Positions 22,977 to 44,352 are shown, numbered from the stretch's first letter. The stretch is 64,000 nt of DNA from an uncultured Candidatus Peribacteria bacterium (GCA_964509985.1 CAZDZQ010000010.1:6187-70186), one strand, 5' to 3'. A program made the numbers and translations. The notes: generated by a model not told the origin, from the letters alone.

Positions 22977-25604
22977 ATGACATTGAAAAAATTGTTTAAA
23001 TTTCGGATTTTATTCATGATGCTTATATTTGCAGGTATTAGTGCTGTGCAAATGTTGGTAGATAATGTGGATTATAAAAGCTTTTTTGATTGGTTAATTT
23101 CAAATTTTCCAGATAGGCAAATGAGTATTGTGATAGATTTTTTTTGGATTTATTATTCTCTTACTATTGGTTTTGCGCTTATGCGAAAATGGTATCATGA
23201 GCGAAAAAGTAGAAATTTAGTTTATATAAAGGCAACAATGCCTCGGGCAGATTCTAAAGCAGATGAAGAAAAACGAACACATAAAGATTTTAAAGAGGTT
23301 ATGGGTGTAATGTCTCAGTTTTATAGATCTATGTATGAAATTTCAGATTTGAACTGGTGGCATTCTGTTATTTCTCGAATTTGGGATCATAATGAAATTT
23401 CGTGTGAATTGGTAATGATTAACCGTCAATTACAGTTTTATGTAGTGTGTGATGAATATTATCAATCTATAGTAGAAAAGCAATTAACAGCATTGTATTC
23501 TGCGGTAGAAGTGGAAACTTCACGAAAGGATTATCAGTTTAAAACGAAAGGATACTCAATGAATGGATATAATCTTTTTACAAAAAATGAAGATTACTAT
23601 CCTATTAAAATGATAAAAGAAATGGAGGAAGATCCGTTAAATGATATTACAAATGTTTTTTCAAAACTTTCACCAGATGAAACGGCAGCTATTCAAATTA
23701 TTATAAATCCAATTGGAGATGAGTGGCGACAAGAGGCCGAGAGAATTTCAACTCTTTTATTTAAAGAAAAAGAAGTGAATACATTTCCTAAATTTTTAGA
23801 TATTCCGGTTATTGGAATTATTTTTAGATTTATTGGGGCTTTATTTTCTGGCAGTACAGATATTTTAAAGTCTAAAAAAGAAGAATCTGGAGGAATTGTG
23901 AGAATGTTGCAACCAAAAGAAGAGGCGATTAAGAGAATGGGGTTGAAGTCTGGGCAAGAGCCGTTTATTACGCATATTAGAATTATGGTGTGTGCAAAAA
24001 CAGATAAACGTGTTGAAAGTTTACTTAACGATATTTTGGTTTCTTTTACTGTTTTTCGAGACACATATTCAAATTGGTTTGATTATAAAAGAATTTTTCC
24101 TGTTGATTCTATAAATGGTTGGTTGATGTTTCATGGTTTTAAAAGAAGGCTTGGTCAGGCTTATTTTGGAAAACCAAGTGTTTTGGTTCCAGATGAACTT
24201 TCAACTTTGTATCATATGCCAGATTCTAAATATAATAGATCTAGTACAATTCAATGGTTGAAGTATAAGAAATTGCAACCACCAAAAGATTTGCCAACAG
24301 AGGGGGTATTAATGGGATACAATACATATCGTGGTATTCCAACTCCTGTATATATTTCGGCTTATGACCGTTCTCGGCATATGTATGTTTTGGGGAAATC
24401 TGGTTCTGGTAAGTCTGTATTGCTTTCGTATATGGCACGACAAGATGCAAAAAATGGAACTGGTTTTGGAATTATTGATCCACATGGAGATTTAATTGAA
24501 GATATTTTGCGATATATTCCAAAAGAAAGAGCAAGAGATGTTGTAGTGTTTAATCCTGCAGATACAGAGCGACCAATGGGGTTAAATATATTGGAGGCAA
24601 AAACTCCAGAACAAAAGGATAGAGCTGCACTGGATGCCATGCAAATTTTTATTAAAATGTTTGGAAATGAAATTTTTGGTCCACGAATTCAACATTATTT
24701 TAGAAATGCGTGTTTAACATTAATGGACGATGAAGAAGAGGGGGCTACTATTTTGGATATTCCTCGAATGTTTATTGATGAAACTTTTCAAAAATATAAA
24801 GTTACAAAGTGTAAAAATACAGTGGTTCGTCAGTTTTGGGAGGGAGAAATTGCAAATACTGGGGATAGAGAAAAACAAGAGATGATTCCATATTTTACAT
24901 CAAAATTTGGTCCATTTATTTCAAATACTACTATTCGTAATATTATTGGTCAGCCAAAAAGTGCATTTAATGTTCGAGATGTGATGGATGAAGGAAAAAT
25001 TCTTTTAATTAATCTTTCAAAAGGTTTGATTGGAGATACAAATGCACAGCTTTTAGGGTTGATATTGGTAAATAAAGTTTCTATGGCAGCCATGAGTCGT
25101 GCTGATATTCCAGAAGAAGAGCGGGTTCCTTTCTTTTTATATGTGGATGAGTTTCAAAATTTTGCAACAGATGCATTTGGAGATATTTTGTCGGAAGCCC
25201 GAAAATATAAACTAGCACTTGTGATGGCGCATCAATATATTGCTCAGTTGAATGGTGGGGGAATGGGAGGAAAAGAAACAAAATTGAAAGAAGCTATTTT
25301 TGGTAATGTGGGAACAATGATTACATTTAAAATGGGGGCAGAAGATGCAGAATATTTTGAAAAAGAATATGCTCCAGTGCTTTCAAATCAGGATATTTTA
25401 TCTATTGCAAATTATAAAGCATATTTAAAACTTTCTATTGGAAATGCACCATCGCGTCCTTTTTCTATGGGGACTATTTGGGATCAAACAGGGTCGAACC
25501 AAAAAGTGGCGAATATATTAAAAGAATATTCTAGAACTCGATATGGTAGAAAATTAGAATTTGTAAATCAAGAAATTGAAGCGAGGTTAGGAATTGTGGA
25601 GTAG
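22977..25604 (+). CDS. membrane-anchored P-loop ATPase, type IV secretion coupling protein-like (VirD4/TraD/TraG; FtsK-HerA superfamily)
   Basis: Two N-terminal TM helices (ILFMMLIFAGISAVQML; FFWIYYSLTIGFALM). Walker A VLGKSGSGKS (about 24393-24416) is followed by IIDPHGDL. Walker B is FFLYVDEFQNF. The ARKYKLALVMAHQYIAQL block is typical of TraG-D_C/DUF87-type ATPases. Confidence 0.7.
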   Translation: MTLKKLFKFRILFMMLIFAGISAVQMLVDNVDYKSFFDWLISNFPDRQMSIVIDFFWIYYSLTIGFALMRKWYHERKSRNLVYIKATMPRADSKADEEKRTHKDFKEVMGVMSQFYRSMYEISDLNWWHSVISRIWDHNEISCELVMINRQLQFYVVCDEYYQSIVEKQLTALYSAVEVETSRKDYQFKTKGYSMNGYNLFTKNEDYYPIKMIKEMEEDPLNDITNVFSKLSPDETAAIQIIINPIGDEWRQEAERISTLLFKEKEVNTFPKFLDIPVIGIIFRFIGALFSGSTDILKSKKEESGGIVRMLQPKEEAIKRMGLKSGQEPFITHIRIMVCAKTDKRVESLLNDILVSFTVFRDTYSNWFDYKRIFPVDSINGWLMFHGFKRRLGQAYFGKPSVLVPDELSTLYHMPDSKYNRSSTIQWLKYKKLQPPKDLPTEGVLMGYNTYRGIPTPVYISAYDRSRHMYVLGKSGSGKSVLLSYMARQDAKNGTGFGIIDPHGDLIEDILRYIPKERARDVVVFNPADTERPMGLNILEAKTPEQKDRAALDAMQIFIKMFGNEIFGPRIQHYFRNACLTLMDDEEEGATILDIPRMFIDETFQKYKVTKCKNTVVRQFWEGEIANTGDREKQEMIPYFTSKFGPFISNTTIRNIIGQPKSAFNVRDVMDEGKILLINLSKGLIGDTNAQLLGLILVNKVSMAAMSRADIPEEERVPFFLYVDEFQNFATDAFGDILSEARKYKLALVMAHQYIAQLNGGGMGGKETKLKEAIFGNVGTMITFKMGAEDAEYFEKEYAPVLSNQDILSIANYKAYLKLSIGNAPSRPFSMGTIWDQTGSNQKVANILKEYSRTRYGRKLEFVNQEIEARLGIVE

Positions 25605-25763: not shown

Positions 25764-28700
25764 ATGTTTTTTTTAAAAATTTTTTCAAATTTTTTTCAAT
25801 TTATATTTCAGCAATTAAAAGTTGTATGGTTTTTTATGTTTCATTTTTTTAGATTTAAGCCATTAGTATCTAGTGTTATTATAATTGCATTAATTTTGCC
25901 AATATTATTACCTTGGCAAAATATAATGGTTTCTTCGCAATATATAGAATCGGAGCATAGTTTGATAACTATTTTTGTAGATAAAAATTTGTATGATAAT
26001 GTTGAATTAAATAAAAAAATAACAAGATATGCACAAGATGTTCAATATTCATATTCTGATACAAAAGTTTCTATTATTCCAGTAAATAAAGAAAAAACAT
26101 CAGAAGAAATTTATAGAATTTTAGAAAAATATTATTTTGAAGGGCAAAAAATAGAAGATAATATTTTTTTTCTTACGGGAATAATTATTATAGGAGATGT
26201 TATTTTGCCAGATTTAAAATCTGAAGCTGGAAATATGCCATCTATTTTTCCGTATACTGATTTTGAAAAACCAGTTTTTATTTGGGATACAGAAGATAAA
26301 AAATGGATAGAAAATCCGAAAGTAAATACTCCAAGTGCAGAAATTTGGCATGGAATAATTCCAGGAACAAAAAGTCAATTATTTAAATTTTTTGATAAAA
26401 ATCATGTTATGCATGAAAAATTATATTCTGGTTCAGAAGAATTTAATGATGTAATTCGTGATGAAATTTTGTATTGGGATAGTACAACTGAGAAAACAGG
26501 AATGCAAAAAATGAATTTGCAACAATATGAAAAAGCGATGGATTTAATGGGTTATAGAAAAGAATTTAAATATTATACAAATTTTTTAAAATTTTTATAT
26601 TCAGATTTTTTAAATGAAAAGGATTTTGAAGATGATATTCCGGAAACTGTAAAATCTTTGTATCCAGACAATAGAGATATATTTTTAGAAAAAATAGATG
26701 ATGTAAAAGAAAAAATATCTGGAGATACTTTAAATAATATTCCAGATAGAAATGTTAAAGTATCCATAGAGAAATTACTTCCAACTTATGCAGAAGTTGT
26801 AAAGTCTTATGAAACAGATTCTCAAGAATTTATAAAAAATACGGGGAGATGGGATAATAAATCTGCAGATACTGTTCCAGAAATGATTTCTGTGATGGAT
26901 GAATATGTAGGAAATGAAATTAAAAAAATTAATGATACATTTAAAAATGTGAGTATTAATAATGTTAAACAATTAGACGGAGAAAAAGAAATTATTGTAA
27001 AAGAAAAAATAAATCATTGGACTTCAGAAAAACCTGTGAAGTATTGCGAAGAAGAGAGAACTCATCCACGATATAATTATATAAATGGATATTTGGCAGA
27101 ACCAACACCTGCTCCTATTGTAAATGGTGAGCGGTATTATGACTTGGATAATCCACCACAAATGATAGAGGATACAAAAGATTGTACGCTTTATCGAGGA
27201 GAAAAGGGGTCTCATGAATTGTATGGAAATAAGGATTTTTATACATGGTTAGATCAAAAAAAAGGAAAAATTCCTGATTCAACAGATGAATCGTATATTT
27301 ACTTACCAGATAGTTTGCCAAATGTTTCTTCAAAATTGGTAGAATACAATAAGCTGGATTCTATTGAATGGCTCGAGAAAGAGCGTGGAGATGCTGATGA
27401 AAAAGTAGGGGGATGTTATTTAGGATCTGAAGAAAATGATGATATATGTATTCCTATGGAAGCAACTATTCCTGTTCTTGCATGGGACGGAGGAGTTGAA
27501 AGAGCACCAAGGGAATATTTTCCGTATGGAGATAGAACTCTAGGTAAATTGGAAGAAGATGCAGAAATTTCTGCAATTTCTTGTAATAGAATGTCTTTTG
27601 CAGAAGAGAGATATGGAGTTGTTGGTTCTGATAATTTAGGGAATCCAATTTTCGGTTGTGTTCCATATTATGGAGTACATAAAGCTTATAACACAAAAAC
27701 GATTTCTTCGTATACATTGCATGACGATGCATCTTTAAATGATGAAAAATCATTAAATGAAGTAGTTGGACGATTGAAATCGAAGGCTATGGGTGTAAAT
27801 AAAAATTCTTTTCAAACTGTTTTAAATGGAAGATATGATGGAATTCAAGAGTCTGTAGATCAATATTTTCCAGATTTTTTTAGATTGCAATATAAAAAAA
27901 TGATACATTCTGCAGTTCTTACTCAGTATGAATTAAGTCGAATTGCATTTTGGAATAGCTTGCAACTATTAGGAGGAGGAGCTATTTATAATAGAACTTC
28001 TCAGTTGAAAAATTCCATGGGGATGATGGTTCAAGTTCCTGTTATTAAGGCACAAAGATTGGTAATGTTTGATGAAAAAACAAATACTTCTAAAACGAGT
28101 GAATCGTTTATTATGCCTGATAATTTGAATAAGAGGCCATTAGACTATGAATTACCTGCATATGAAACAATGTTGCAAGTTTTGGTAGATCCTGAGATTT
28201 GTTTTGATGAAGATAAATTTCGTGTAAAAATATTAAAACCTAAAATTACAGCATATGCAGAAGATTATTTTAAAATGCATTATGATTTGCCAGGTGGTGT
28301 AAGAAATTTATTAGCACAGCATATTTCAGGGTTAAATTATGCAAAAACATGGGAGTATGAGGTTGCTATGGATTTAATAGCAACAGTAGTTTATTCAAGG
28401 GGATATAATTCTTGTGCAATTCTAGACGAAGGACCAATTATGCGTGATATTCATTCTTTTGAATATAAAAAGAAAACAAATCCATCAGACTATTTTTTAA
28501 AAGATTTATTAACAGAACAAAATGTTGAAGTAGATCCTGATTTTAATAAATATAGATATTTGGCATTTCATAATGTTGGAAGTACATGGCAATGGGAACC
28601 GTTGGTAAAAGGTATTTTTAAAAAAAAATACTCTCCTGAAGAGCTTGATGAATTACAATCAGTAATTTCTTCAGAATTTTCTGAAGAAGTTTCTGAACAA

Positions 28701-31700
28701 TTACGAAAAAAATTGAGTGAATTGTTTGATACAACTCTTGCAGAAAGCGAGGTAATAAAAATATCTGATATTTTTCCTGAAGATATAATAGAGGAAAGAG
28801 ATAGTGATGCAAATAGAGATGGTTTGGGTGAATCTTTAAAAAATATTATAAATAAAATAATAAAAGAAATTGAAGGAGAGGTTTTGCAAAAAATTATCTT
28901 TGATATTATTGAAGAGTCTGGGAATGTAATATTGCCTGAATTTTCAAAAGAATTGCAAGAACAATTGCAAGAGCGTTTAATTGAAGAATTAGAATTAGCA
29001 TTCAATGAAAATTTTATAGAAAGAGTTTCTGCGTTAATTCCTTATCAAATTATTGATGATATTCATGGTGTTGATGTTCATGGGAATAAGATAACAGAGC
29101 AAAATGTTTTAGATGATGCTTCAATACTTGCATATAAGAAATTGATAAAATTAGAAACAAAAGTATTGAATGATAATCATTATACTTTGAATAATATGTT
29201 AATGAACGAATTTTCAGATTATGGTCGTTTAATAGTTAATGATTTATTAAATGGTGATGAAGGTGACAGTGAAGGTGAAGGTGATAGTGAAGAAGAAAGT
29301 CAGGCGCTAACAATAGCGGAAGTTTTTGAAATAATAAATAATTATGAAAAGAAAAAAATTTATAATTTTTTTAATGAAGAAAATAAAAATTTATTTAATT
29401 TTGAAGCTGCTGAAAAATATAAAATTCTTTTAATGGATACTGTTAGAAAAAATTTACTTAATAATTATGTTCGAAATATATCATTTAATTCACTTGAAGA
29501 TGATATATATAATATAATACAAGACATAACAATCGAAGTTCAAGGAAAATATCCGTCTCAAAGTATTCAAGAAATGGCTGATGAAATTCCAGAAAATTTA
29601 GGTGAAATGTATATCGAAACTCAAGAATTATTGCCAAGGTTAGATAGTAAATTTCATACATATTTACGAGTAAGTGGACGAACTTTTTTAGATGGAGAGA
29701 AATCAGCTCGTCCTAATGCAAATAGTCAATATCCTGCCGGTCAGGAAGCAAATGGAGTGTCATGGTTTAGAGATGATGACATGAAAAAATGGTCTATAGA
29801 TTTAAATAAAGGTACTGAAGACAGAAAAAGATATATTACTTCAAATGAATATTATAGAAAATTTCATAGGTATAAAAAAGGACATCCTAAAGATGAAGAT
29901 AGTGATGATTATGTTTATGAAGTAAATACTGTTAAAAAATTTAAAAAAAATATACCTGATGTAAATACATATCCAGAAGAAGTATTTTTTACAGATATAA
30001 AAAATCAATCAAAAGATGCATATGATTTAAAAGTGCGACAACAAGATTTAGTTTTTCATTGGCAAAACATGACAGCTCAAGAAAAACATGAAAAAATTCA
30101 ACAAATATTGTTAAGTAAAAATCAAAAATTGGTGCAACCTCTTCAAGAAAAAAATGAATATCTTTCCACTGGAGAATCAAAGCCATATGCATATGCACAT
30201 TGGCGTATAGAGGGAGATTCTGAGCCAGCATGGCTAGCGGAAAATGATCAAACTTCTCTTTTGTTGGGATTGCCTACTTCGGATTATGGTTCTGGAGCTT
30301 TTTCAAATTTTGAAAAAAATCCAGAAAAAATGCAGGCAATAGATAAAAATGGAGAAGAGCAAGATGAAGAATGTGGAGATATGGAAGGAGTTCCTTTGGA
30401 GGATTGGTTGGATGCTATCGATTGTTGGATGGAAAAAATGGGAAAATTGGATGAGTTAGAAACGACTTCTGCTTGTAATTTAAGTTTAGAAGAATTTAAG
30501 GCTTTGCAATCAGACGAAAAAGATACAAAAAATGCAGTTGAAAAAATTGAATTTACTCCAACTATTGAACCGTTTTTCGCAAAAGGAGAAAGTAAAATTT
30601 TATTATCGTTTAAAACAAAAGAAGATAAATTGGCATTTGGACATGATATTCGTTTTACTGTAACTCTTGAGAATGCAAAAATGAGAGATGTTATAAACGA
30701 TGTAGATTTAGAAAAAGAAGGAACTCAGCTTATTAATAGAACTGGAGAAGAGTGGATAGAAATTATTCCAGATGATAATGTTGAGAATGTAAAAATTACA
30801 GTAAAAATTGATGATGAAAATTTAGAAAAATCTGAAAATATTATTGGAAATAAAGAATTTGAAGTTTTACCACAAAATCTTGATGTATTTTATATTGAAG
30901 AAATTCAAAATACTGAAGTTTTAGGGGTAAAGGGGTATGAATTTAAAATTACATCTCCTGTAGATTTTATTCATTTTGACGAAGAAATAGTTTTATCTAT
31001 ATCTCCAGAAAAAGAAGGAATTTTGGGAACAAATACAGTTGAGTTAAATACTTCTTTTAAGGTGGGAGTAAGGACAGATGAAAGTGTTATACTTACCGCT
31101 TCTTTAAGAGGTTCAAAATCTGTATCTAAGATTTTATCAGGTGTTTCAGATATTTCTTCTACCGTAGGTGATATTCAATTACCCACACTTCCAAATATTA
31201 TAGATTTACATTCTCGTATAGAATTTGATGTCAGGTATTTAAATGAATTAGGAACAATTTTAGATTCTGAAATAGATGGAGAGTTACAATTGATAAAAAT
31301 ACCAGATGAAGAGCGAAAAAAATATAATGTAGAAATTTTAGATAACCAAAAAATACAAATAGAAACAAAAGGAGTTATTGGAGAAGTTACATTTACTCTT
31401 CAATATAAAAAAAATGGAGAAGTTTTAAGTAAAGAATTTTCTGTGTGGATTGGTGGAAAACATTCTGTGGAAGAATACGAAAAATTTAATTTTAATGCAT
31501 TATATGCCACTATTGTAGGACTTGAAAATTATGGAACAAATTTAAATAATCATTTTGCTACTAAAATATTGCATTCTTCAGATAATTTAAATGTTGTGAC
31601 TACTCAAATAATTGCACCAAAAGTAAAAAAACCTGTAGCGAGAATTTTTAATAATGGGACAATAGAAACGTATTCATCAGGATATAAAGCAAATCTTTTA

Positions 31701-34700
31701 AATATTTCACCTTTAAAAATAGGTTTGTATGATAAAAAAGAAAAAAGATATAAAGGAAAGTTTGATTTTGTAATAGAAAAATTTGAAGAAGAAAATTTGT
31801 ATTTACAGGCTCCTGTAAATGAAGAAAAAGGAATATTTTTTGAAAAATTATCTACTGCAAAAAGTATTTCAGCAGAGAAAAAAAATAAAAATATTTTTGT
31901 AAAACTTGATAATATTGATATTTTATCAATAAATAACTTAGGAAATATTGAAATTTTAGATAATAATTTTAGAGTTGAAATAGATGAAAAAGAAAAAGTT
32001 TTAGGTATATCATTGTTAATTCGTAAAAATGATACAAGTACAACATATGGTCGAATTACTTTAAGAGGTGGAAAATTAAAAAAATCATCTGAAAGTATTT
32101 GGGTTAAAAGTTTAAAAGATGAAGATGGATACGAAATTTTAGAAACAGATGCAAAATTAGTACCTTTATTTTCAACATATCAAACAAATTTTTCTAAAAA
32201 TATATTTAGTTCTGGATTTAAGGACGATGAAAAATATGTTTTAGAATATGCATCTGGTCTTACTGTTGGTGAGGCAACACAGTCTTCTGCAGATTTATTT
32301 TTAGTAAATTTGGGAGATCCATCTATTTCTATTCCACCTCCTGCAGATTCAACATCAAGTGATTTTGATAGAACAATTGGAAAAAGTGTTTTAAAAGAAA
32401 AAGGAGGAACTATTCAAAAAATACTTCCTTTTGATTTTGATGGAGACGGGAAAGTGGATATTGCTGAAATTTCATCAGAAGGATTTGTTCATATTTTGTT
32501 GAATACAGGAAATGCAAATGGTGATATGAAGCAATGGGGAAAAGCTGTGCGTATAGATTCTGATTATAGGTCAATTTCAAAACTTTCTATAAAAGAAGAT
32601 GCAGAAGATGTTTATGATGATTTAGTATATGTTGATAGATTTGGTAAATTTCATCATATAAAAAATAAAGAAGGTGTTTTAAGCATAGTAGATAATCCTG
32701 AATATTTTCCAAAAGAAATTTTGATTACATCTGAAATAGAAGATTTAAATAAAGATGGATTTAGTGATATTATTGGAATTACAGAAAATAATGAAATAAA
32801 AATTTGGTATGGAAATTCTAATTATTTTATATCAGATCCAGTAAATATTGATTCTTATGGTTTTGTAATTCCAAAAGCAAAAGTTTTAGCTAAATCAGTT
32901 TTGATAAATTTTAAAAATATTGAAAGTATTTCAGATTTTGTAGATGATATAAAACAAATTTCTTATATTTCAAAAATAAAATCAGTTCAAAATAAAGAAA
33001 ATAAATCAGTAGAAGATAATTTATCAGAATCTAGGGTATTAAAAGAATATGAAGATAGAGCTGTTTCTGAAATTATTTTAGGAGATATAAATTCAGCATT
33101 TTCTGCTGGAGTTTCAGAAAAGCCATTTGTAGAAGCACAAAAAATACGAAAATCATTAAGTGTTACAAAAATAATGATTGAAGATGAAAATACAAATAAA
33201 ACAGTGCATCATACTGTAGGAAAAAAATATATTACTCAAATAGAAATTACATCAAAAGATACAAAAGATATTACATTTAATATTGCAGATTTGTACGGAA
33301 ATTTAATGGAAATAGACCAATTTTCTGTGGTGTGTAAATATAAAGATGCATCTACAAATACTTGTGGTGAAGAATATGCAGGATTTACATTTCCTAATAT
33401 TTCTCGTGCAGTAATTTTTGAAAATATAGTATTAAAACCAAATCAGACAGTAGTCTTGAGTTATTATTCTTTTATTAAAAAATTACCAAAGTTAGGATTA
33501 AGTTTAGCTAATTTAAATAATGCTGATGATAATATTATAGATTTTATTGTAAAAAATCCTTCAGATAAATGGGCTTTTCAGTATGAAAGTGTTGGTGAAA
33601 AGTTATATAGTAAAAAATTACCAGATCCTCAGGATTTAAATGTAGATTTAGAACCTTCTCATGGAATAGATGTTTCACTGCTATCAGGTTTATTGGATCC
33701 CGTTGAAATTTCTGACGCTGATATAGATAAAATAATAAATACTGTAGAAAAAATAAATACAGTAGGTAATGGTGTTAATGTTAGTATGGGGATGCAAAAT
33801 GCAATGGCAGGTGCGGCAGGTATAGATGTTCTTACTCCTAAAGAGCAATTAGAAGAATATATTAAAAGCTTATTTCCTAAAGAAACAGATACAACTACAA
33901 GAGCGGTGGGTGAGATTGTTGAAAATTTTGTTGAAGATTTATTAGATTGGCAAAAAAATGGAAAATTTGATGATGATGGAAATTCAATAGAGTTTAATGT
34001 TGAAAATATTAATACAGATTTACAATCTGTAATGATGGGTGCGCGATTTGAAGCTGTAAAATCTGCATCTGGAATTGAAAAAGCGGTAGATAATTTGACC
34101 AATGATGATGATGGTGATGGTGTTCCAAATCAATGGGATGAAGATTTAGATAAAGCGATGACTGAATTGGAAACGGTGTTGGACGATTCTATAGATTTTT
34201 TGGCAAGTTGTAATGGTGGAGGATGTTTGGATATGCCTGTAAATTTTGCATTTTTAGTTCCTGGAGAGATGAATATTTCAGGAATGGTAAATCAAGTATA
34301 TACATCTATTGCAGGGCAAATTGGTAATGTTTTAAAAGACGATACTGTTTCATTGGCTGTGAATGGTGCAAAGCAAATGGCAATGGATGGAGTTGGAAAT
34401 TTTGAAGGTGATCAGCCTTTTGTTATGACTATTTTCAATTTTGGATCAGGGACATTTTGTGTATTGTATGCATGTTTTAGTTATTATCCAATTGTAAGTA
34501 TTCCTTTTGAAACAGGGTTTTCTAATTCTGAATTTAGATTTTATTTATCTCCAACAGTAACAGGTGGGCTTGGATTCGTAATTTGTACAGGAAGTGGAAA
34601 TTCTACATCAGATCCTGGTGGAAGTTGTTTTATTCAAGCTATAGAAGGAGATTTGGGAGATGTCTGTAATGATTTGGCTGCAAAAATTAATAATGCAATA

Positions 34701-37700
34701 CATAGTTCTCTTGGTGCAGGAAGTCGAGTTTTTGAAATTGATTCTCAGTATGTTGATGATTTATATGCAGAAGTTGGAGGAAGTGGAGATGGAACTATGA
34801 CAATAGGAGCATATAGTCTTGGAAATATTGATACCAGTATTCCATCATCTCAAAATACAAGAATTAATTCAGAAAATTATTTTGGGCGTTGGTTAAATAG
34901 GCAAATTGAAGAAATCACATCTATGTTTACAGTTCCTACTCTTACTATTTTGTATCCTGATATTTCTAATACTTTTTTTGGTGAAAATAATACTTCAATT
35001 ACTGCAGGTATGATACAAGAAGATGATTACAAAGATGCATCTAATGCTTTTTCAAATGATACATCAAACATTACATTTGAAAATCAATGGAATAATCAAG
35101 AAGACAAAGAAAAAAAACAAGATGAAGATAGAAGTGAAGGGGTTTTAGACTCTTCAGAGTCAGGTATAAATTCTGTATATGACTATATAACTCCGCAGGG
35201 TAAAAATAAAGAAGCGGTAAAATATTCAGCCAAATCTATAGATGATTTTTACAGAATCTTGGAAAGTGTTCCTATTATAAATATTAGAAGAGAGTCTATT
35301 GTTATTAAATATCCATCTCTTTCTCGAAAAGAATTATTAACAAAAATTCATGATTTAGATGTTTTTATAGAGGCTGCAAAAGAAGAACTTAATACATTTG
35401 AAGATTTAGTAGTGAATTGGCCTGCAGATAGAAAAGCAGAGCATCAACAAATTGTGAGAAAATGTAAAAGATTTATAAAAGATTTAGTTAAATTATTAGA
35501 TGCTTTAAATTTTTATAAAGACGAAGCAGGTGATTTAATTGCAGATTTTGATTCACAAATGAGTCGATATATTTATTCAATAGTTTGTTATTTAAATGCT
35601 ATTACAGATTTAACAGGTGGATGGTTAATGAAAAATAAAATTCGTTATGAAAAATGGTTAGAGTTTTATGACACTATTATAGAGTTAATGAAAATGTATA
35701 AAAAAATTCCAGAGATTTTAAATGGATATCAGGCTTCTTGTGAGCAATGTAGAGCAACAAATGCAGATTCTAGTGATAATATGGTGGGGTCGATTGGAAG
35801 TTTCTTTCCAGAACCTCCTATTATTCGATTTCCTCGTCTCCCTGATCTAGTATTAGATGTATCTCAAATTAATGCTGGAATTACAGTTTCGATTCCAGAA
35901 ATTACATTCAAAGCAGTTCCTTTAAAAATTCCTAATTTACCGAAGGTATTGTTACCAAATGTTCCAATTTTAGCTGTAAATTTAAAATTTCCAAAAGTTC
36001 CAAATTTACCAATTTTTGAATTACCAGTACTTCCAGAATTTCCAGATTTGAATATTCCCGTGTTACCAAATATTCCACCGCCACCAAAACTTCCAGATAT
36101 TCCATCAGAGCTTATGGATGTAATGGAGGTTATTGAAAAAGCATTATATTTATATTGTATTATTGTGAGACAGGGGATTTTCTTTCATGATGAAGATACT
36201 GCAATGTCTGTTGTAGAAACGCTTACAAATAGAAAAATAAATCCATTAAGTATGGACTTTATATCAAAAGATTTTCCAGATATAGTATTGCCGAGTATTT
36301 CTGAAATTGAAATTATAGCAGAGGTAAATTTGGAAAAAGATTTAGGTGCTATTTCAGATAAAGTTCAAGATTTTGCAGATGGTATAAATGATGCCACAAC
36401 AAACATGGTAAAAGACGCAAATCGTAATTTAAGTGATAATTATGATAAATATGGTGATCCTATAGATTTATCAGATAATAAATATGTGAAAAAAGTAGAG
36501 AGAGAGGTGGAAAATTTGCAAGAAAATATTAATAAAGAAATAGATGATAAATATAATAAAAATGTTGATAATTTAAATGATGATGTAAATGAAGGAATGA
36601 ATAATATTAATAAACATATTGAAAATCAGGAAAATAGAAATCAAGAAAATGTAAACACCGAAATAGATAGAGTAATAGATAAGGTAAAAAAAGATTTATC
36701 TTTTGAAAATTTAAATAATTCTGAAAAATTATTTAAAAAAATAATTGCAAAAGACATGCAAAACATGCAAAAAAATATAAAAAATATAAATAATCCAAAA
36801 AATTATATTTCTGTTTCTCAATTACGAAAAAAAATGGGATTACATAGCATGAAGAACATTGATATTTCTAAAAAAATAACTTCTGTTTCTCCTGTTTTAT
36901 CTAAATATCAAGATATGAATAAAGCTTTAATATCTATTCAAAAATATTATGAAAAACAAGAAACATTTTTAGCAGAAAAAAATATTCATTTTTTAGATAT
37001 GGTTGCTCAAAATATTTCAGATTTCCCAAAATCTAAAGTATATGCATGCGAAGGTGAAAATTGTTCAGATAACCAAATATCACCAATATCAGAAGAAGAT
37101 AAAAGAAATCCTACAAAAAATAATTCTCCACAAAAACAACCAGATGAAGGAATTTTTATTCAGTCAGAAACTGGAGCGGTTACAAAACTGACAGAGTATA
37201 CTGATGAAGTCACTCAAATTCATACATTTTTTAAGAATGATATGGATGGAGATGGATTGGAAGATATCGTTTATGCAACTTCAAATGAGATTTTTATTAA
37301 ATATGCAAATAATTTTAATAAAAATTATAGATTAAAATACTTAAAACAAGGTGTTTATGTTCCTGAAAATGGGGATCCAACATCTGTAGAAATTTTAAAT
37401 TTTGAAGAAATTTTACCAGAATTTTTATCTCCTAAAAATTTGGAAGTGTTTGGAGATGGAAAAAAACTTTCAGTTTCTGTGTTGCCAGAACCAAAAGAAT
37501 TAATTTCTGGAGTGTTGTATACGATTGATGATTCAATAACATTTGAACAAAGAAAAGGTGGGGATGTTCAAAAAATTAGAAAATATATATTTCAACTTAC
37601 AAAAGAAACATTTGATAAAATGTCTCAAAAATATTCTGGAATGATAGAACGAGATGTAGAATGGGAAAAAGAAGTTGGAGAAAATTTTATTGAAATCAAT

Positions 37701-40700
37701 AATCAAAAAATATTTTTAGAACCAAATTCTATAGTGCGAATAGATAAGTTTGATTATGGGCAACTTGAAACATTTATTCCAATAAATGATGTAAAATCAT
37801 TAAAAGCACGATGGATAACGAAAGATGGTAAATTAAGTAATTATGCAAATCATGATTTATTATTTAATACTCAAGCAAGCGATACTCATGCTCCGTTATT
37901 ATTAAGTAGAGATATATATGAAGAAAAATTAATGTATAAAAAAAATACAGTTTCATTAACTGGAGTGTTTGATTTAGAAAATGGAGATTCATCTGTATCT
38001 TGGGATACTGATAATGATGGGATTTATGAAACAACAGGGGATAGTTTTACTACAAAAATTCATGAAGAATTGTTTGAAAAAGAAAATGTTCCATTTAAAG
38101 TTACAGATACGCTTGGAAATGAAGCTATGGGAACTGCATATATAACATTTATATCTCCATATGTTAAAGTTGATAGTGCAACAGAAAATACTGTAAAAGG
38201 TCATGTAGAGCCTCGATATGCAAATGTTCCAGTTGTTTTATTAAGAGAACGATTTGGTGTTTTGAAAAAAATTAGAGATGTTGTAAAAACTAATGCTTTA
38301 GGAGAATATATTTTTGAACATTTAGATAATTCTGCTACGAATTTAGCAATTTTAAAAGATGAATCAGGAATAATTATTGGGGAAGTTGGCAAAGATGGAC
38401 AGCTTCATTCCTTGGAAAATGCACAAAATTATGAAATTAAATTATTGGAAGGAGATAAATATTTGCCACTACGGCAGGTTCTGGTTAATTCTGTAACGGG
38501 AAAGGTTGTTGCTACTCTTGTGTTAAAATCTAATAGTGAATATAGTGTAAAACTTTTACAAAATTTACAAAGTTTTACAGATGAAGTAGATAATAATAAT
38601 AATAAAAATAATATTTCAGAGTATAATAATTCTGTATTTATTACAGATAATAATGAAACTGATGATTTTGTATTTGGACAAATGCCACTGGATGCATCTG
38701 ATAATGCAGGTGGAGGTGTGATATTTTCAAAAATTGAAAATAAGCCAATGGTTATGGTATATCCAGATGGAAATATTAGATTTTTTCCAGAGTATAAAGA
38801 TAATTTATCTGTACGACAAAAAAATATTATTTATACAAATTCTGATGATGAGGAAATAACAAAAATTGTTGTTGAAATTTTAAATTCTGAATCAAAAATA
38901 TTTGAAGTTTTATTAGATATTCAAAAAACAAAAGTAAATATAGATTTTGATACGGTTGCAAGTGCGTCTGTGTTGGATTATGAAAATAATAATAAGCAAA
39001 ATGCAGAAAAATATAGTTTTATAAATATTCATAATTTTACAGCATCTGTAGATAATCTGATTCCAAATTCAAAAAATACATCATCAGAATTATTCAAAAA
39101 ATTTCCTTTTACGGATTTATCAGAGCAAAAAAATAAAAATATTTATAATGCTGTTAAAAATTTGTATGAAAAAAATATGATATCAGGATATGAAAATAAT
39201 AAATTTAAGCCAAATCAAAAAATAACAAGGGCTGAATTTGTTCATGAAGCTCTTGCTGTTACAAAATGTTTAGATTGTATAAATCCTTCAGATTTTGAAA
39301 AAAATAAATATTATAAGCCTTTTTCTTTTTCAGATATAGTTCCTCAATCGTGGTATGATTTTTGTATTTCAAAGGCAAAAGAAATTTCTATGATTAAAGG
39401 ATATAAAAATGGAGAATTTAGACCGAATCAAAATATTACTCGTGCAGAATCAGTCGCTATATTGTTACGGCAAGCTGATATTCCTTTAGAACAAACATTA
39501 AATACGGCAATTGCAAAAACAGAAAGTATTGGAGATTTGGATCCGTCTCAATGGTTTTATAAAGAAATGATAACCGGAATAAATTTAGGTTTGATAGATC
39601 CTGTTTTAGGATTTTCATTTCCAAATAAACAAATTACACGAGGAGAATTTGCGATTATGTCAGATAAAATATTTGTGTTGAGGGATTGTAGAGATGTTGA
39701 TAGTGATAATGATGGAATATTTGATTATTTAGAAGAGTATTATGGATCAAATGCTTTTGATAAAAACAGTATTCCTGAAAATATAGAAACATTAAAAAAT
39801 CCAAGAGATGAATTATTATCTCCTATTCCAGAAAATCAAAATAATCAAATTATTGATGATTTAACAGATAAAGAAAATAGTAATAATTTTGATAAAAATA
39901 TAGAGAATATAGATTCTGATGCTGATGGTATTCCAGATTATAAAGATATAGATTTTTCAGAATTTAAAGAAGATATAAATAATAATAATATTTCAGATAG
40001 ATTTGAAGAAGTACTGGGCTATGGAACTTTAGATATAAACAATAATGGTATTTTAGATTACTATGATTATTCACTTGTAAATCAATTGGATACTAATACT
40101 AATTTAAGTTTAACAGATAAGACTAGTACTAATTTGAGTTTAACAGATAAGACTAAGACTAATCTAAGTTTAACAGATAAGACTAGTACTAATTTAAGTT
40201 TAACAGATAAGACTAGTACTCGTGCTATTTTAGATTATTATGATTTAGTTTTAAATTTTTTAAATAATAAAAATAATAAAAATAATAATTTCACTTTATC
40301 TTTAACCGATAAAAATAATAACAATATTATTGATCAGCGTGAAGATTTGTATAATAAAGAAACTAGTAAAGATAGTGATAGTAAAGATAGTAAAAATAGA
40401 GATGATAGAGATAATAATAAAGAAATTTATCCAAATATAGATAAGATACCTCATTCTTTTCCAGAAGTTTTAACTGATTTATGTCCACTAGTTCCAGAGG
40501 ATTATGATAGAATAGACGATGCAGATGGATGTCCAGAATTGGAAAAAGCAGAAGATGTATTTGAAATGGATATTTCTACGTTATTTGTAAACAATACAGA
40601 CGAATGTAGTTTTGTAGATTATGCTGATGAGTTTAGAAATGGGGATATGATAAAAACTGTAATTTTATCACCAAATGAAAAATATTTATATAAAGAGAGC

Positions 40701-40736
40701 GATACAATAAAAATTTCAAAATCTATTGAGTATTAA
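25764..40736 (+). CDS. 4990-aa giant mosaic cell-surface protein
   Basis: Single uninterrupted ORF of 14,973 nt with an N-terminal hydrophobic anchor (~25860-25917). FG-GAP/VCBS-like motifs are FDFDGDGKVDIAE, DLNKDGFSDIIGI and NDMDGDGLEDIVYA. Asp-rich Ca-binding-like motifs are DDDGDGVPNQWDEDLD, DSDNDGIFDY and DSDADGIPDYKD. A PKD-like segment reads SWDTDNDG...FKVTDTLGNE. There are also a Pro-periodic spacer, three SLH motifs and tandem repeats. Confidence 0.85.
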   Translation: MFFLKIFSNFFQFIFQQLKVVWFFMFHFFRFKPLVSSVIIIALILPILLPWQNIMVSSQYIESEHSLITIFVDKNLYDNVELNKKITRYAQDVQYSYSDTKVSIIPVNKEKTSEEIYRILEKYYFEGQKIEDNIFFLTGIIIIGDVILPDLKSEAGNMPSIFPYTDFEKPVFIWDTEDKKWIENPKVNTPSAEIWHGIIPGTKSQLFKFFDKNHVMHEKLYSGSEEFNDVIRDEILYWDSTTEKTGMQKMNLQQYEKAMDLMGYRKEFKYYTNFLKFLYSDFLNEKDFEDDIPETVKSLYPDNRDIFLEKIDDVKEKISGDTLNNIPDRNVKVSIEKLLPTYAEVVKSYETDSQEFIKNTGRWDNKSADTVPEMISVMDEYVGNEIKKINDTFKNVSINNVKQLDGEKEIIVKEKINHWTSEKPVKYCEEERTHPRYNYINGYLAEPTPAPIVNGERYYDLDNPPQMIEDTKDCTLYRGEKGSHELYGNKDFYTWLDQKKGKIPDSTDESYIYLPDSLPNVSSKLVEYNKLDSIEWLEKERGDADEKVGGCYLGSEENDDICIPMEATIPVLAWDGGVERAPREYFPYGDRTLGKLEEDAEISAISCNRMSFAEERYGVVGSDNLGNPIFGCVPYYGVHKAYNTKTISSYTLHDDASLNDEKSLNEVVGRLKSKAMGVNKNSFQTVLNGRYDGIQESVDQYFPDFFRLQYKKMIHSAVLTQYELSRIAFWNSLQLLGGGAIYNRTSQLKNSMGMMVQVPVIKAQRLVMFDEKTNTSKTSESFIMPDNLNKRPLDYELPAYETMLQVLVDPEICFDEDKFRVKILKPKITAYAEDYFKMHYDLPGGVRNLLAQHISGLNYAKTWEYEVAMDLIATVVYSRGYNSCAILDEGPIMRDIHSFEYKKKTNPSDYFLKDLLTEQNVEVDPDFNKYRYLAFHNVGSTWQWEPLVKGIFKKKYSPEELDELQSVISSEFSEEVSEQLRKKLSELFDTTLAESEVIKISDIFPEDIIEERDSDANRDGLGESLKNIINKIIKEIEGEVLQKIIFDIIEESGNVILPEFSKELQEQLQERLIEELELAFNENFIERVSALIPYQIIDDIHGVDVHGNKITEQNVLDDASILAYKKLIKLETKVLNDNHYTLNNMLMNEFSDYGRLIVNDLLNGDEGDSEGEGDSEEESQALTIAEVFEIINNYEKKKIYNFFNEENKNLFNFEAAEKYKILLMDTVRKNLLNNYVRNISFNSLEDDIYNIIQDITIEVQGKYPSQSIQEMADEIPENLGEMYIETQELLPRLDSKFHTYLRVSGRTFLDGEKSARPNANSQYPAGQEANGVSWFRDDDMKKWSIDLNKGTEDRKRYITSNEYYRKFHRYKKGHPKDEDSDDYVYEVNTVKKFKKNIPDVNTYPEEVFFTDIKNQSKDAYDLKVRQQDLVFHWQNMTAQEKHEKIQQILLSKNQKLVQPLQEKNEYLSTGESKPYAYAHWRIEGDSEPAWLAENDQTSLLLGLPTSDYGSGAFSNFEKNPEKMQAIDKNGEEQDEECGDMEGVPLEDWLDAIDCWMEKMGKLDELETTSACNLSLEEFKALQSDEKDTKNAVEKIEFTPTIEPFFAKGESKILLSFKTKEDKLAFGHDIRFTVTLENAKMRDVINDVDLEKEGTQLINRTGEEWIEIIPDDNVENVKITVKIDDENLEKSENIIGNKEFEVLPQNLDVFYIEEIQNTEVLGVKGYEFKITSPVDFIHFDEEIVLSISPEKEGILGTNTVELNTSFKVGVRTDESVILTASLRGSKSVSKILSGVSDISSTVGDIQLPTLPNIIDLHSRIEFDVRYLNELGTILDSEIDGELQLIKIPDEERKKYNVEILDNQKIQIETKGVIGEVTFTLQYKKNGEVLSKEFSVWIGGKHSVEEYEKFNFNALYATIVGLENYGTNLNNHFATKILHSSDNLNVVTTQIIAPKVKKPVARIFNNGTIETYSSGYKANLLNISPLKIGLYDKKEKRYKGKFDFVIEKFEEENLYLQAPVNEEKGIFFEKLSTAKSISAEKKNKNIFVKLDNIDILSINNLGNIEILDNNFRVEIDEKEKVLGISLLIRKNDTSTTYGRITLRGGKLKKSSESIWVKSLKDEDGYEILETDAKLVPLFSTYQTNFSKNIFSSGFKDDEKYVLEYASGLTVGEATQSSADLFLVNLGDPSISIPPPADSTSSDFDRTIGKSVLKEKGGTIQKILPFDFDGDGKVDIAEISSEGFVHILLNTGNANGDMKQWGKAVRIDSDYRSISKLSIKEDAEDVYDDLVYVDRFGKFHHIKNKEGVLSIVDNPEYFPKEILITSEIEDLNKDGFSDIIGITENNEIKIWYGNSNYFISDPVNIDSYGFVIPKAKVLAKSVLINFKNIESISDFVDDIKQISYISKIKSVQNKENKSVEDNLSESRVLKEYEDRAVSEIILGDINSAFSAGVSEKPFVEAQKIRKSLSVTKIMIEDENTNKTVHHTVGKKYITQIEITSKDTKDITFNIADLYGNLMEIDQFSVVCKYKDASTNTCGEEYAGFTFPNISRAVIFENIVLKPNQTVVLSYYSFIKKLPKLGLSLANLNNADDNIIDFIVKNPSDKWAFQYESVGEKLYSKKLPDPQDLNVDLEPSHGIDVSLLSGLLDPVEISDADIDKIINTVEKINTVGNGVNVSMGMQNAMAGAAGIDVLTPKEQLEEYIKSLFPKETDTTTRAVGEIVENFVEDLLDWQKNGKFDDDGNSIEFNVENINTDLQSVMMGARFEAVKSASGIEKAVDNLTNDDDGDGVPNQWDEDLDKAMTELETVLDDSIDFLASCNGGGCLDMPVNFAFLVPGEMNISGMVNQVYTSIAGQIGNVLKDDTVSLAVNGAKQMAMDGVGNFEGDQPFVMTIFNFGSGTFCVLYACFSYYPIVSIPFETGFSNSEFRFYLSPTVTGGLGFVICTGSGNSTSDPGGSCFIQAIEGDLGDVCNDLAAKINNAIHSSLGAGSRVFEIDSQYVDDLYAEVGGSGDGTMTIGAYSLGNIDTSIPSSQNTRINSENYFGRWLNRQIEEITSMFTVPTLTILYPDISNTFFGENNTSITAGMIQEDDYKDASNAFSNDTSNITFENQWNNQEDKEKKQDEDRSEGVLDSSESGINSVYDYITPQGKNKEAVKYSAKSIDDFYRILESVPIINIRRESIVIKYPSLSRKELLTKIHDLDVFIEAAKEELNTFEDLVVNWPADRKAEHQQIVRKCKRFIKDLVKLLDALNFYKDEAGDLIADFDSQMSRYIYSIVCYLNAITDLTGGWLMKNKIRYEKWLEFYDTIIELMKMYKKIPEILNGYQASCEQCRATNADSSDNMVGSIGSFFPEPPIIRFPRLPDLVLDVSQINAGITVSIPEITFKAVPLKIPNLPKVLLPNVPILAVNLKFPKVPNLPIFELPVLPEFPDLNIPVLPNIPPPPKLPDIPSELMDVMEVIEKALYLYCIIVRQGIFFHDEDTAMSVVETLTNRKINPLSMDFISKDFPDIVLPSISEIEIIAEVNLEKDLGAISDKVQDFADGINDATTNMVKDANRNLSDNYDKYGDPIDLSDNKYVKKVEREVENLQENINKEIDDKYNKNVDNLNDDVNEGMNNINKHIENQENRNQENVNTEIDRVIDKVKKDLSFENLNNSEKLFKKIIAKDMQNMQKNIKNINNPKNYISVSQLRKKMGLHSMKNIDISKKITSVSPVLSKYQDMNKALISIQKYYEKQETFLAEKNIHFLDMVAQNISDFPKSKVYACEGENCSDNQISPISEEDKRNPTKNNSPQKQPDEGIFIQSETGAVTKLTEYTDEVTQIHTFFKNDMDGDGLEDIVYATSNEIFIKYANNFNKNYRLKYLKQGVYVPENGDPTSVEILNFEEILPEFLSPKNLEVFGDGKKLSVSVLPEPKELISGVLYTIDDSITFEQRKGGDVQKIRKYIFQLTKETFDKMSQKYSGMIERDVEWEKEVGENFIEINNQKIFLEPNSIVRIDKFDYGQLETFIPINDVKSLKARWITKDGKLSNYANHDLLFNTQASDTHAPLLLSRDIYEEKLMYKKNTVSLTGVFDLENGDSSVSWDTDNDGIYETTGDSFTTKIHEELFEKENVPFKVTDTLGNEAMGTAYITFISPYVKVDSATENTVKGHVEPRYANVPVVLLRERFGVLKKIRDVVKTNALGEYIFEHLDNSATNLAILKDESGIIIGEVGKDGQLHSLENAQNYEIKLLEGDKYLPLRQVLVNSVTGKVVATLVLKSNSEYSVKLLQNLQSFTDEVDNNNNKNNISEYNNSVFITDNNETDDFVFGQMPLDASDNAGGGVIFSKIENKPMVMVYPDGNIRFFPEYKDNLSVRQKNIIYTNSDDEEITKIVVEILNSESKIFEVLLDIQKTKVNIDFDTVASASVLDYENNNKQNAEKYSFINIHNFTASVDNLIPNSKNTSSELFKKFPFTDLSEQKNKNIYNAVKNLYEKNMISGYENNKFKPNQKITRAEFVHEALAVTKCLDCINPSDFEKNKYYKPFSFSDIVPQSWYDFCISKAKEISMIKGYKNGEFRPNQNITRAESVAILLRQADIPLEQTLNTAIAKTESIGDLDPSQWFYKEMITGINLGLIDPVLGFSFPNKQITRGEFAIMSDKIFVLRDCRDVDSDNDGIFDYLEEYYGSNAFDKNSIPENIETLKNPRDELLSPIPENQNNQIIDDLTDKENSNNFDKNIENIDSDADGIPDYKDIDFSEFKEDINNNNISDRFEEVLGYGTLDINNNGILDYYDYSLVNQLDTNTNLSLTDKTSTNLSLTDKTKTNLSLTDKTSTNLSLTDKTSTRAILDYYDLVLNFLNNKNNKNNNFTLSLTDKNNNNIIDQREDLYNKETSKDSDSKDSKNRDDRDNNKEIYPNIDKIPHSFPEVLTDLCPLVPEDYDRIDDADGCPELEKAEDVFEMDISTLFVNNTDECSFVDYADEFRNGDMIKTVILSPNEKYLYKESDTIKISKSIEY
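39104..39680 (+). other. three SLH (S-layer homology) motifs inside the giant protein
   Basis: FTDL...NMISGYENNKFKPNQKITRAEFVHEAL; FSDI...MIKGYKNGEFRPNQNITRAESVAILL; ...FPNKQITRGEFAIMSDK. Confidence 0.7.
40098..40217 (+). repeat. 4 x 30-nt in-frame tandem repeat encoding TNLSLTDKT(S/K)
   Basis: Units at 40098-40127, 40128-40157, 40158-40187 and 40188-40217. Differences are TTA/TTG/CTA (all Leu) and AGT/AAG (Ser/Lys). A degenerate extra copy (FTLSLTDKNNNN) lies near 40283-40315. Confidence 0.9.
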
Positions 40737-44324: not shown

Positions 44325-44352
44325 AAAAATAGAGCCATATGGCTCTATTTTA
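44325..44352. terminator. bidirectional terminator hairpin between convergent genes
   Basis: AAAAATAGAGCC-ATAT-GGCTCTATTTTATT. GC-containing stem AGAGCC/GGCTCT flanked by A and T runs. Confidence 0.6.

Follow-up and report, generated by a model that had tools for sequence, protein, structure and literature searches.

Bacteria belonging to the Candidate Phyla Radiation (CPR), or Patescibacteria, are thought to live attached to other cells, and few of their attachment molecules are known. Among the closest described systems are the giant surface proteins, none of them characterized, of CPR bacteria of the Gracilibacteria/Absconditabacteria/Peregrinibacteria type: the related predator Vampirococcus lugosii encodes giant membrane or surface proteins proposed for host attachment, the largest of which is the 4163-amino-acid (aa) hypothetical protein VAMP_16_20 (PMC8080830), and large extracellular proteins annotated with FG-GAP repeats have been reported from Peribacteria together with S-layer genes (PMC4736985). 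A gene of the same size class and lineage lies within a 64,000-nucleotide stretch of DNA from an uncultured Candidatus Peribacteria bacterium (GCA_964509985.1 CAZDZQ010000010.1:6187-70186), here called the window, on which coordinates are counted unless another locus is named. The gene (25764-40736, plus strand, TAA stop included) encodes a protein of 4990 aa that has in common with these CPR giants a predicted extracellular location, FG-GAP-like or integrin-type repeats, and a proposed role in attachment, VAMP_16_20 being compared by its published description. The window protein adds an acidic insert of ~500 aa, S-layer homology (SLH) modules, and a C-terminal module. A giant, wall-tethered CPR surface protein is of a kind already known; the family to which this one belongs is large and undescribed and occurs in tiny symbiotic bacteria of Gracilibacteria type. 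The reading favored here, by a modest preponderance of the evidence, is that the protein is a Sec-exported giant fiber of a small-genome, low-G+C bacterium of the Gracilibacteria class, with a cleaved signal, tethered near its C-terminus by SLH modules and likely to serve in cell contact.

An earlier note on this DNA had described the open reading frame as a single gene, and it proved unbroken and collinear with ~120 full-length relatives. A stop-free run of 4990 codons would arise by chance at the base composition of the window with p ~1e-200, and there is no in-frame TGA within it. The window has a G+C content of ~27% and carries ordinary chromosomal genes, including rplK, rplA, valS, and genes for a Mur ligase, enolase, nusA, and RNase J. 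In a word-indexed database, 23 giant homologues of 3307-5730 aa aligned collinearly with the window protein, the closest of them, P0002, being 41% identical almost from end to end. When a profile of the conserved core was searched exhaustively with HMMER, 603 clusters at 50% identity were recovered, 352 of them with E≤1e-30; the proteins in nearly all of the clusters are 3000-6000 aa long and have the core roughly two thirds of the way along. These proteins share a layout of an N-terminal alpha/beta domain, an FG-GAP block, a Cys/Gly-rich module, and an LP-repeat core at ~65% of the length. The only named relatives are proteins from 'Candidatus Gracilibacteria' metagenome-assembled genomes that are annotated as hypothetical (the P0002 contig and a family fragment); word-indexed searches with alignments of the core (A1) and the N-terminal domain (A2) yielded only family fragments and no relative with an annotation, and the cluster look-up gave no names for the family clusters. 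In a collection of genomes, a scan with a single protein found nothing, and the last scan recovered only the contig of P0002. At one related locus (L004, GCA_029260985.1), the giant gene is in two pieces of 3307 and 1000 aa, separated by a +1 frameshift inside a tandem repeat of three 11-nt units (gtcccacaacg; L004 19860-19930), the result of an error in assembly or of a site prone to slippage. In the relative P0003, a single open reading frame is collinear with both halves, so the fused form, as in the window, is the normal state.

SLH is the sole Pfam family above its curated threshold in the giant protein, and scans with NCBIfam and PHROGs matched no family. Three SLH modules, the predicted cell-wall tether, occupy aa 4448-4640 (39105-39683, plus strand), where the Pfam SLH model (PF00395) reaches 73.2 bits (cut-off 20.8) and the SLH domain of the Bacillus anthracis S-layer protein Sap (6bt4) aligns across all three repeats with E=6.9e-10; the alignments to 6bt4 and 3pyw cover aa 4463-4630. 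The modules carry the motifs ITRAEF (aa 4488), ITRAES (aa 4559), and ITRGEF (aa 4625), and the three SLH motifs that the earlier note had placed at 39104-39680 are thereby borne out. The SLH domain of Sap and Gram-positive exoproteins anchored by a C-terminal SLH triplet have in common with the giant protein three tandem SLH modules with TRAE and a signal-peptide-like N-terminus. In contrast to these proteins, the giant is at least 10 times larger, comes from a CPR host, contains no enzyme, cohesin, or lattice domain, and continues for ~350 residues past the SLH triplet, including a conserved terminal domain.

At the other end of the protein, a hydropathy scan (Kyte-Doolittle, window of 19) revealed just one segment of strong hydrophobicity, at aa 31-51, with a peak of 2.41 over aa 31-49, in agreement with the hydrophobic segment noted earlier at 25860-25917, and no second segment of transmembrane grade anywhere in the 4990 aa. 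Alignments with homologues begin at query aa 25-31, so Met25 (25836) is likely the true translation start. Read from Met25, the probable signal peptide (25836-25934, plus strand) has the n-h-c layout of a Sec (signal peptidase I) signal peptide, with a positively charged n-region (MFHFFRFK), a hydrophobic h-region (PLVSSVIIIALILPILLPW), and a c-region of seven residues (QNIMVSS) with small residues at -3 and -1, followed by Q58. The resulting site, VSS↓Q (the arrow marking the cut), satisfies the (-3,-1) rule and places the predicted cut before Q58. More than 40 relatives, SLH-bearing ones included, have a canonical FA↓ or AxA↓ site at the aligned position, 6-12 residues ahead of the first conserved strand (for example ..VFSA↓A, ..KIFA↓S, ..TVSA↓A, and ..VAQA↓A). 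Since canonical sites recur in so many relatives and the window protein itself satisfies the rule, a cleaved signal peptide is the better reading, and the hydrophobic stretch is most likely an export signal rather than a second anchor. The fallback offered in the earlier note, a cleaved signal and a wall-tethered fiber, is accordingly preferred to that note's proposal of a protein pinned at both termini, on the strength of the relatives' sites, the protein's own VSS↓Q, and the SLH triplet.

Under the favored reading, translation would start at Met25, residues 25-57 would be cut off as the signal peptide, and the mature chain of ~4930 residues would be held non-covalently on the cell wall through the SLH modules near its C-terminal end; triplets of this kind bind pyruvylated secondary cell-wall polymer. 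The remaining chain would project outward as a long modular fiber with the N-terminal alpha/beta domain at its far end, and would carry FG-GAP-type calcium repeats, Asp-rich calcium loops, a proline-rich LP repeat, and immunoglobulin (Ig)-like modules. Its most likely job would be contact with, or attachment to, another cell, whether host or prey, as has been proposed for related CPR giants. The protein is very probably extracellular. The open reading frame, family membership, SLH triplet, conserved calcium-loop motifs, and signal-peptide-like N-terminus are borne out by the sequences, whereas cleavage, orientation, calcium binding, fiber shape, and adhesion are inferences. Of the adhesive role claimed in the earlier note, the part resting on conserved FG-GAP-type calcium loops, together with the CPR literature, is plausible, while the PKD call on which it also drew fails the test with hidden Markov models (HMMs).

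The combination of signal peptide and C-terminal SLH triplet extends well beyond the window. Across the 118 full-length members in which SLH modules and Trp content were counted, 52 bear the same triplet, always 80-345 residues from the C-terminus, which makes the combination a conserved design. All but one of the 52 have a normal Trp content, as expected of the standard code, and 41 of the 42 high-Trp members, which are UGA-recoded, have no SLH modules. Many relatives belong to such UGA-recoded genomes; their loci cannot be translated with the standard code, and in their database translations Trp makes up 3-7% and stands where Gly is found in relatives. The standard code holds for the window and the relatives nearest to it, and sister lineages read UGA as Gly. 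As far as these sequences indicate, the mode of surface retention seems to track genetic-code lineage. The division between SLH-bearing and recoded members, the conserved core, and the C-terminal domain together constitute a family-level lead and are nothing special to this window. As a side observation on the code, the stop codons of 30 long open reading frames in the window comprise 25 TAA, 5 TAG, and 0 TGA; this could be an effect of the small sample, or UGA could be avoided or unassigned as an intermediate stage of codon reassignment.

Motifs of the form [DN]x[DN]x[DN]G occur nine times in the giant protein against 1.1±1.0 expected, a number reached in 0 of 2000 shuffles. FG-GAP/VCBS-like repeats with DxDxDG motifs lie at aa 2140-2360 (32181-32843, plus strand), where the family keeps Asp residues D2224, D2228, D2232, D2278, D2286, D2327, D2331, and D2335 with little or no variation. 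The position given for such repeats in the earlier note was right, and of 11 full-length relatives, 9 match FG-GAP_3 in the same region (best E=2.8e-7), but the window protein itself scores below the Pfam cut-off (20.8 bits against 26.9, at aa 2224-2259). An isolated FG-GAP-like repeat, DMDGDGLEDIVY, follows at 37233-37307 (plus strand; Pfam FG-GAP E=0.14 at aa 3826-3842), and its motif is kept in 13 of 24 relatives. The DxDxDG repeats recall the FG-GAP beta-propellers of integrin alpha and VCBS proteins; the likeness consists in the loop motifs, and the score of the window protein stays under the Pfam cut-off.

Further Asp-rich loops stand outside these repeats. The loop DDDGDGVPNQWDEDLD at aa 2781 (34101-34151, plus strand) resembles thrombospondin type 3 repeats and is kept in 19 of 24 relatives, among which DxDxDGxPD is conserved, so the Asp-rich motif reported earlier (DxDxDGxxDxxD) is present and conserved, but TSP_3 gave no Pfam match to support the thrombospondin label. 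Three more Asp/Asn-rich loops resembling calcium-binding loops are found by motif search in the tail, at aa 4646, 4717, and 4757 (39699-40073, plus strand). The first two correspond to loops that had been pointed out near 39693-39740 and 39910-39955, and the third is additional; all three are lineage-specific, being kept in only 1-3 of 24 relatives. Dockerin-like EF-hand repeats were considered for this tail (aa 4646-4775) and rejected, there being no Pfam Dockerin match; the resemblance stays at the level of motifs.

Between the isolated repeat and the SLH triplet, the chain is beta-rich and probably composed of Ig-like modules (37866-38543, plus strand), with beta-rich modules reaching to ~aa 4400. 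A family profile of aa 4035-4260 gave a weak match in the PDB, with E=0.007, to a Lap adhesin's Ig-like domain (6xi3), and P4132, R4161, and R4163 are conserved in the region. The PKD-like segment (37990-38160) and the CarboxypepD_reg-like segment (38190-38330) of the earlier note fall here, and neither call held. No Pfam match to PKD, CarboxypepD_reg, TSP_3, or an OmpA-like domain was obtained in the giant protein (E≤1) or in 11 relatives (E≤0.1), and the four calls therefore remain motif resemblances.

The N-terminal half is not the featureless ~2100 aa that had been described, since family alignment shows aa 58-500 and aa 1200-2130 to be conserved across the family, with the intervening aa ~650-1200 lineage-specific. 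A conserved alpha/beta domain at aa 58-225 (25935-26438, plus strand) is modeled by AlphaFold2 with a predicted local distance difference test score (pLDDT) of ~85-95 over the first ~165 residues of the block, low beyond, and its invariant residues are Y89, E121, P149, P163, Y164, D166, F167, E193, W195, H196, and F210. This domain is likely the distal head of the fiber. Against the PDB, Foldseek found nothing significant for the model, the top matches being integrin I-like and flavodoxin-like folds with a best E of 0.05, and a sequence profile search with alignment A2 returned chance-level or generic matches only. A likeness between this domain and the half of gingipain-type (C25) peptidases that is not catalytic was considered and rejected, as it had no Pfam or Foldseek match and no conserved Cys/His downstream. 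The remainder of the conserved block (aa 226-500; 26439-27263, plus strand) is helical in a low-confidence AlphaFold2 model. The lineage-specific part is an acidic, coiled-coil-like insert (aa ~650-1200; 27711-29363, plus strand) with an occupancy of 0.1-0.4 in the family alignment, of which aa 979-1271 are missing even in P0002. It includes the acidic run GDEGDSEGEGDSEEE at ~29258-29292, which had been noted at ~29250-29300. A moderately conserved middle region (aa ~1200-2139; 29364-32180, plus strand) in which no known domain was found leads on to the FG-GAP block, and its invariant or near-invariant residues are W1433, K1441, W1548, and C1554.

The conserved core lies about two thirds along the chain and is encoded on the plus strand. 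A Cys/Gly/Pro-rich module (aa 2808-3140; 34185-35183) has invariant C2821, P2825, N2827, A2829, P2833, R2925, P2930, T2931, T2933, C2941, C2955, and C2968, is modeled by AlphaFold2 at a pLDDT below 50, and matched nothing in Pfam or the PDB. It is followed by a helical bundle (aa ~3140-3340; 35181-35783) that ends in an invariant CxxC (C3326, C3329) and whose profile matches in the PDB were to generic helical proteins only. The proline-rich 'LP' repeat (aa 3345-3445; 35796-36098), ending in PPPPKLP, is the best-conserved stretch of the family, with 39-45% identity to distant relatives and more than 20 invariant Pro and Leu columns. The segment after it (36099-36443) is also conserved and has invariant C3465, E3477, R3490, and D3498. 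An AlphaFold2 model of the core (aa 2808-3545, from 12 sequences) has a mean pLDDT of 47.7, and the helical bundle alone, over aa ~3172-3317, reaches 70-85. Foldseek matches to this model were uninformative, and those of a PDB-sequence profile search with alignment A1 were at chance level or generic.

Beyond the SLH triplet and the tail loops, the gene contains a tandem repeat, in accordance with the earlier mention of such repeats, of 30 bp in 4.3 copies encoding T(S/K)TNLSLTDK (40092-40220, plus strand; 90% matches, score 223). The extreme C-terminus (aa 4896-4990; 40449-40733, plus strand) is a conserved domain with DDADGCPE and ECSFxDY..GD. In a jackhmmer search, this domain of ~60-95 aa (..G.Y....C.F.DY.AD...GD..) was found 0-10 residues from the C-terminus in ~70 members. 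The DDADGCPE motif that had been called OmpA-linker-like is real and sits inside this domain, but the OmpA part of the call has no HMM match. A profile of the domain (alignment A9) found nothing significant in the PDB. The domain also occurs in some members without an SLH match and has no known relative, although in being fixed at the terminus it is reminiscent of domains for sorting or secretion.

Giant repetitive adhesins such as the LapA/RTX adhesins, SiiE, Embp, and the Giant1-5 proteins of Apilactobacillus kunkeei (PMC12863079) likewise run to thousands of residues, are extracellular, carry calcium loops, and form a long fiber with a distinct N-terminal head domain, the last two traits being predicted for the window protein. 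There is a point of local similarity, aa ~4090-4145 of the giant accounting for the weak match to the Lap adhesin Ig-like domain. In contrast to these adhesins, the window protein contains no RTX GGxGxD nonapeptides and no C-terminal LPXTG with a hydrophobic tail, would be exported by a Sec signal and not by a type I system, and has no long arrays of one module, most of its sequence being unique and family-specific.

The giant gene is closely followed by other genes on the same strand. rplK begins 32 nt past its stop codon and is succeeded by rplA and then, 1.4 kb downstream of the giant gene, by a gene for a second SLH protein of 726 aa (42127-44307, plus strand) with a signal peptide and N-terminal SLH modules (Pfam SLH, 74 bits). 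Its presence shows that the giant is not the only protein of the organism to make use of SLH tethering. A terminator-like hairpin with an 11-bp stem at 44326-44351 is the sole one on the strand and closes a run of genes that starts at 22977, none being found between 22977 and 44307; a promoter scan yielded fewer sites than shuffled sequence, and the terminator scan about as many. No Rfam match and no tRNA were found in the window. Upstream, on the minus strand, a 1666-aa protein (17822-22822) is encoded divergently from the gene at 22977. It combines hydrophobic stretches rich in Gly with long, Lys/Glu-rich regions resembling coiled coils, and has no family match except a sub-threshold Ig-like one. 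Elsewhere in the window, valS (47796-51806, minus strand; 1336 aa) has its catalytic domain interrupted at aa 514-692 by a histidine-phosphatase domain (His_Phos_1). At two related loci of standard-code relatives (L001 21649-26519 and L004 22935-27856), the giant gene is directly followed by four unnamed genes of ~261, 261, 620-642, and 406-477 aa, which are 26-31% identical between the loci, have no Pfam match, and do not occur in the window.

Several points weigh against a cleaved and SLH-tethered contact fiber. The pyruvyl transferase CsaB is needed for making the secondary cell-wall polymer that is the ligand of SLH modules, and the search for csaB suggested in the earlier note found no PS_pyruv_trans match among the open reading frames of the 64-kb window. 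SLH excepted, no ligand-binding or adhesin domain scores above a curated threshold, and the core has neither a confident structure, its mean pLDDT being the 47.7 given above, nor a match in the PDB. The 41 UGA-recoded members without SLH also have no transmembrane or LPXTG anchor, which implies that the family works without SLH modules and might be released from the cell. Finally, at ~19 residues, the h-region has the length needed to cross a membrane. Were it an uncleaved signal-anchor held in the membrane while the SLH triplet sat on the wall, ~4400 residues would loop out between two fixed ends. Such double anchoring would suit the strong hydrophobicity of the segment (peak 2.41) and a VSS↓Q site weaker than the AxA sites of relatives, and N-terminal retention would explain how relatives with neither SLH modules nor another recognizable anchor stay on the cell. 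It is nevertheless unlikely, because more than 40 relatives have a textbook cleavage site at the aligned position, and the window sequence obeys the (-3,-1) rule with a seven-residue c-region; moreover, characterized proteins whose SLH triplet is C-terminal are known to have their signal peptides cleaved. The triplet itself, resembling that of classical S-layer proteins such as Sap, could instead mark the giant as a subunit of an S-layer lattice. This is barely credible for a protein in which the triplet comes at the C-terminus after 4400 residues of heterogeneous modules and in a family where 66 of the 118 full-length members have no SLH, and the smaller nearby protein with N-terminal SLH modules is a better candidate. 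Known lattice subunits are several times smaller than this ~560-kDa giant.

The gene immediately upstream bears on another possibility, that the giant is the adhesin or contact fiber of an apparatus resembling a type IV secretion system (T4SS). PrgB is a wall-anchored adhesin of Gram-positive conjugation systems, and the giant would play a PrgB-like part alongside the upstream ATPase. That gene encodes an 875-aa VirD4/TraG-like type IV coupling ATPase (22977-25604, plus strand; Pfam T4SS-DNA_transf 8e-11, TrwB_AAD_bind 1e-10, TraG-D_C 3e-5) that matches phrog_5156, a family of unknown function, end to end with E=1e-85. It ends 160 nt before the giant gene on the same strand, with no terminator-like hairpin across 22977-44307. 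At one of nine related loci, the Gracilibacteria-type contig L002, a 40%-identical homologue of the ATPase, labeled DUF8128, lies 4 kb from the giant gene, and two T4SS_pilin-like genes lie within 9 kb of it; weak T4SS_pilin-like matches to small genes occur within 10 kb of the giant gene in L007 and L009. However, no homologue of the ATPase is present at L001 or L003-L006, the genes called in L007-L009 include neither a DUF8128 protein nor a T4SS-type ATPase, the pilin matches are weak or faint, and neither VirB4 nor VirB6 was recognized within the window. No neighbor of the giant gene is conserved family-wide among the nine loci, the others being unrelated housekeeping genes that vary by locus. 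With the ATPase near the giant only in L002 and pilin matches that are weak, the T4SS link is possible but weak, and the contact-fiber version of it has slim prospects. A surface-held effector in place of an adhesin is improbable as well. In that case, the core or the N-terminal domain would be an enzyme or toxin, directed for example against the envelope of a host or prey cell, and the invariant acidic and His residues E121, D166, E193, and H196 of the N-terminal domain speak for it. In predatory bacteria, giant genes have been connected with the degradation of cell walls (bioRxiv 10.1101/2023.11.21.568195), and relatives of the lineage are predators (PMC8080830). However, Pfam, NCBIfam, PHROGs, PDB sequence searches, and Foldseek all returned no catalytic family, and the gingipain (C25) likeness, with neither Pfam nor Foldseek support, is followed by no conserved Cys/His dyad.

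The Sec-exported, SLH-tethered contact fiber remains the preferred reading of the giant protein, and its gene is a clean, full-length example of a widespread family that has no name, no Pfam-covered core, and no characterized member. The SLH tail provides a testable handle on how the protein stays on the cell. The split between SLH-bearing members with the standard code and SLH-less, UGA-recoded members suggests that envelope architecture differs between sister lineages. A bolder view, to which little credence is given at present, is that the backbone of ~4300 residues constitutes a conserved cell-contact organelle of Gracilibacteria-class CPR, retained by SLH modules in lineages with the standard code and by other means in UGA-recoded ones. 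The core, meaning the Cys/Gly/Pro-rich module, the CxxC helical bundle, and the LP repeat, may then be a new structural module of the host interface, possibly working with T4SS-like genes. If the family is indeed a host-contact fiber, it would be a natural target for the study of host range in uncultivated bacteria.

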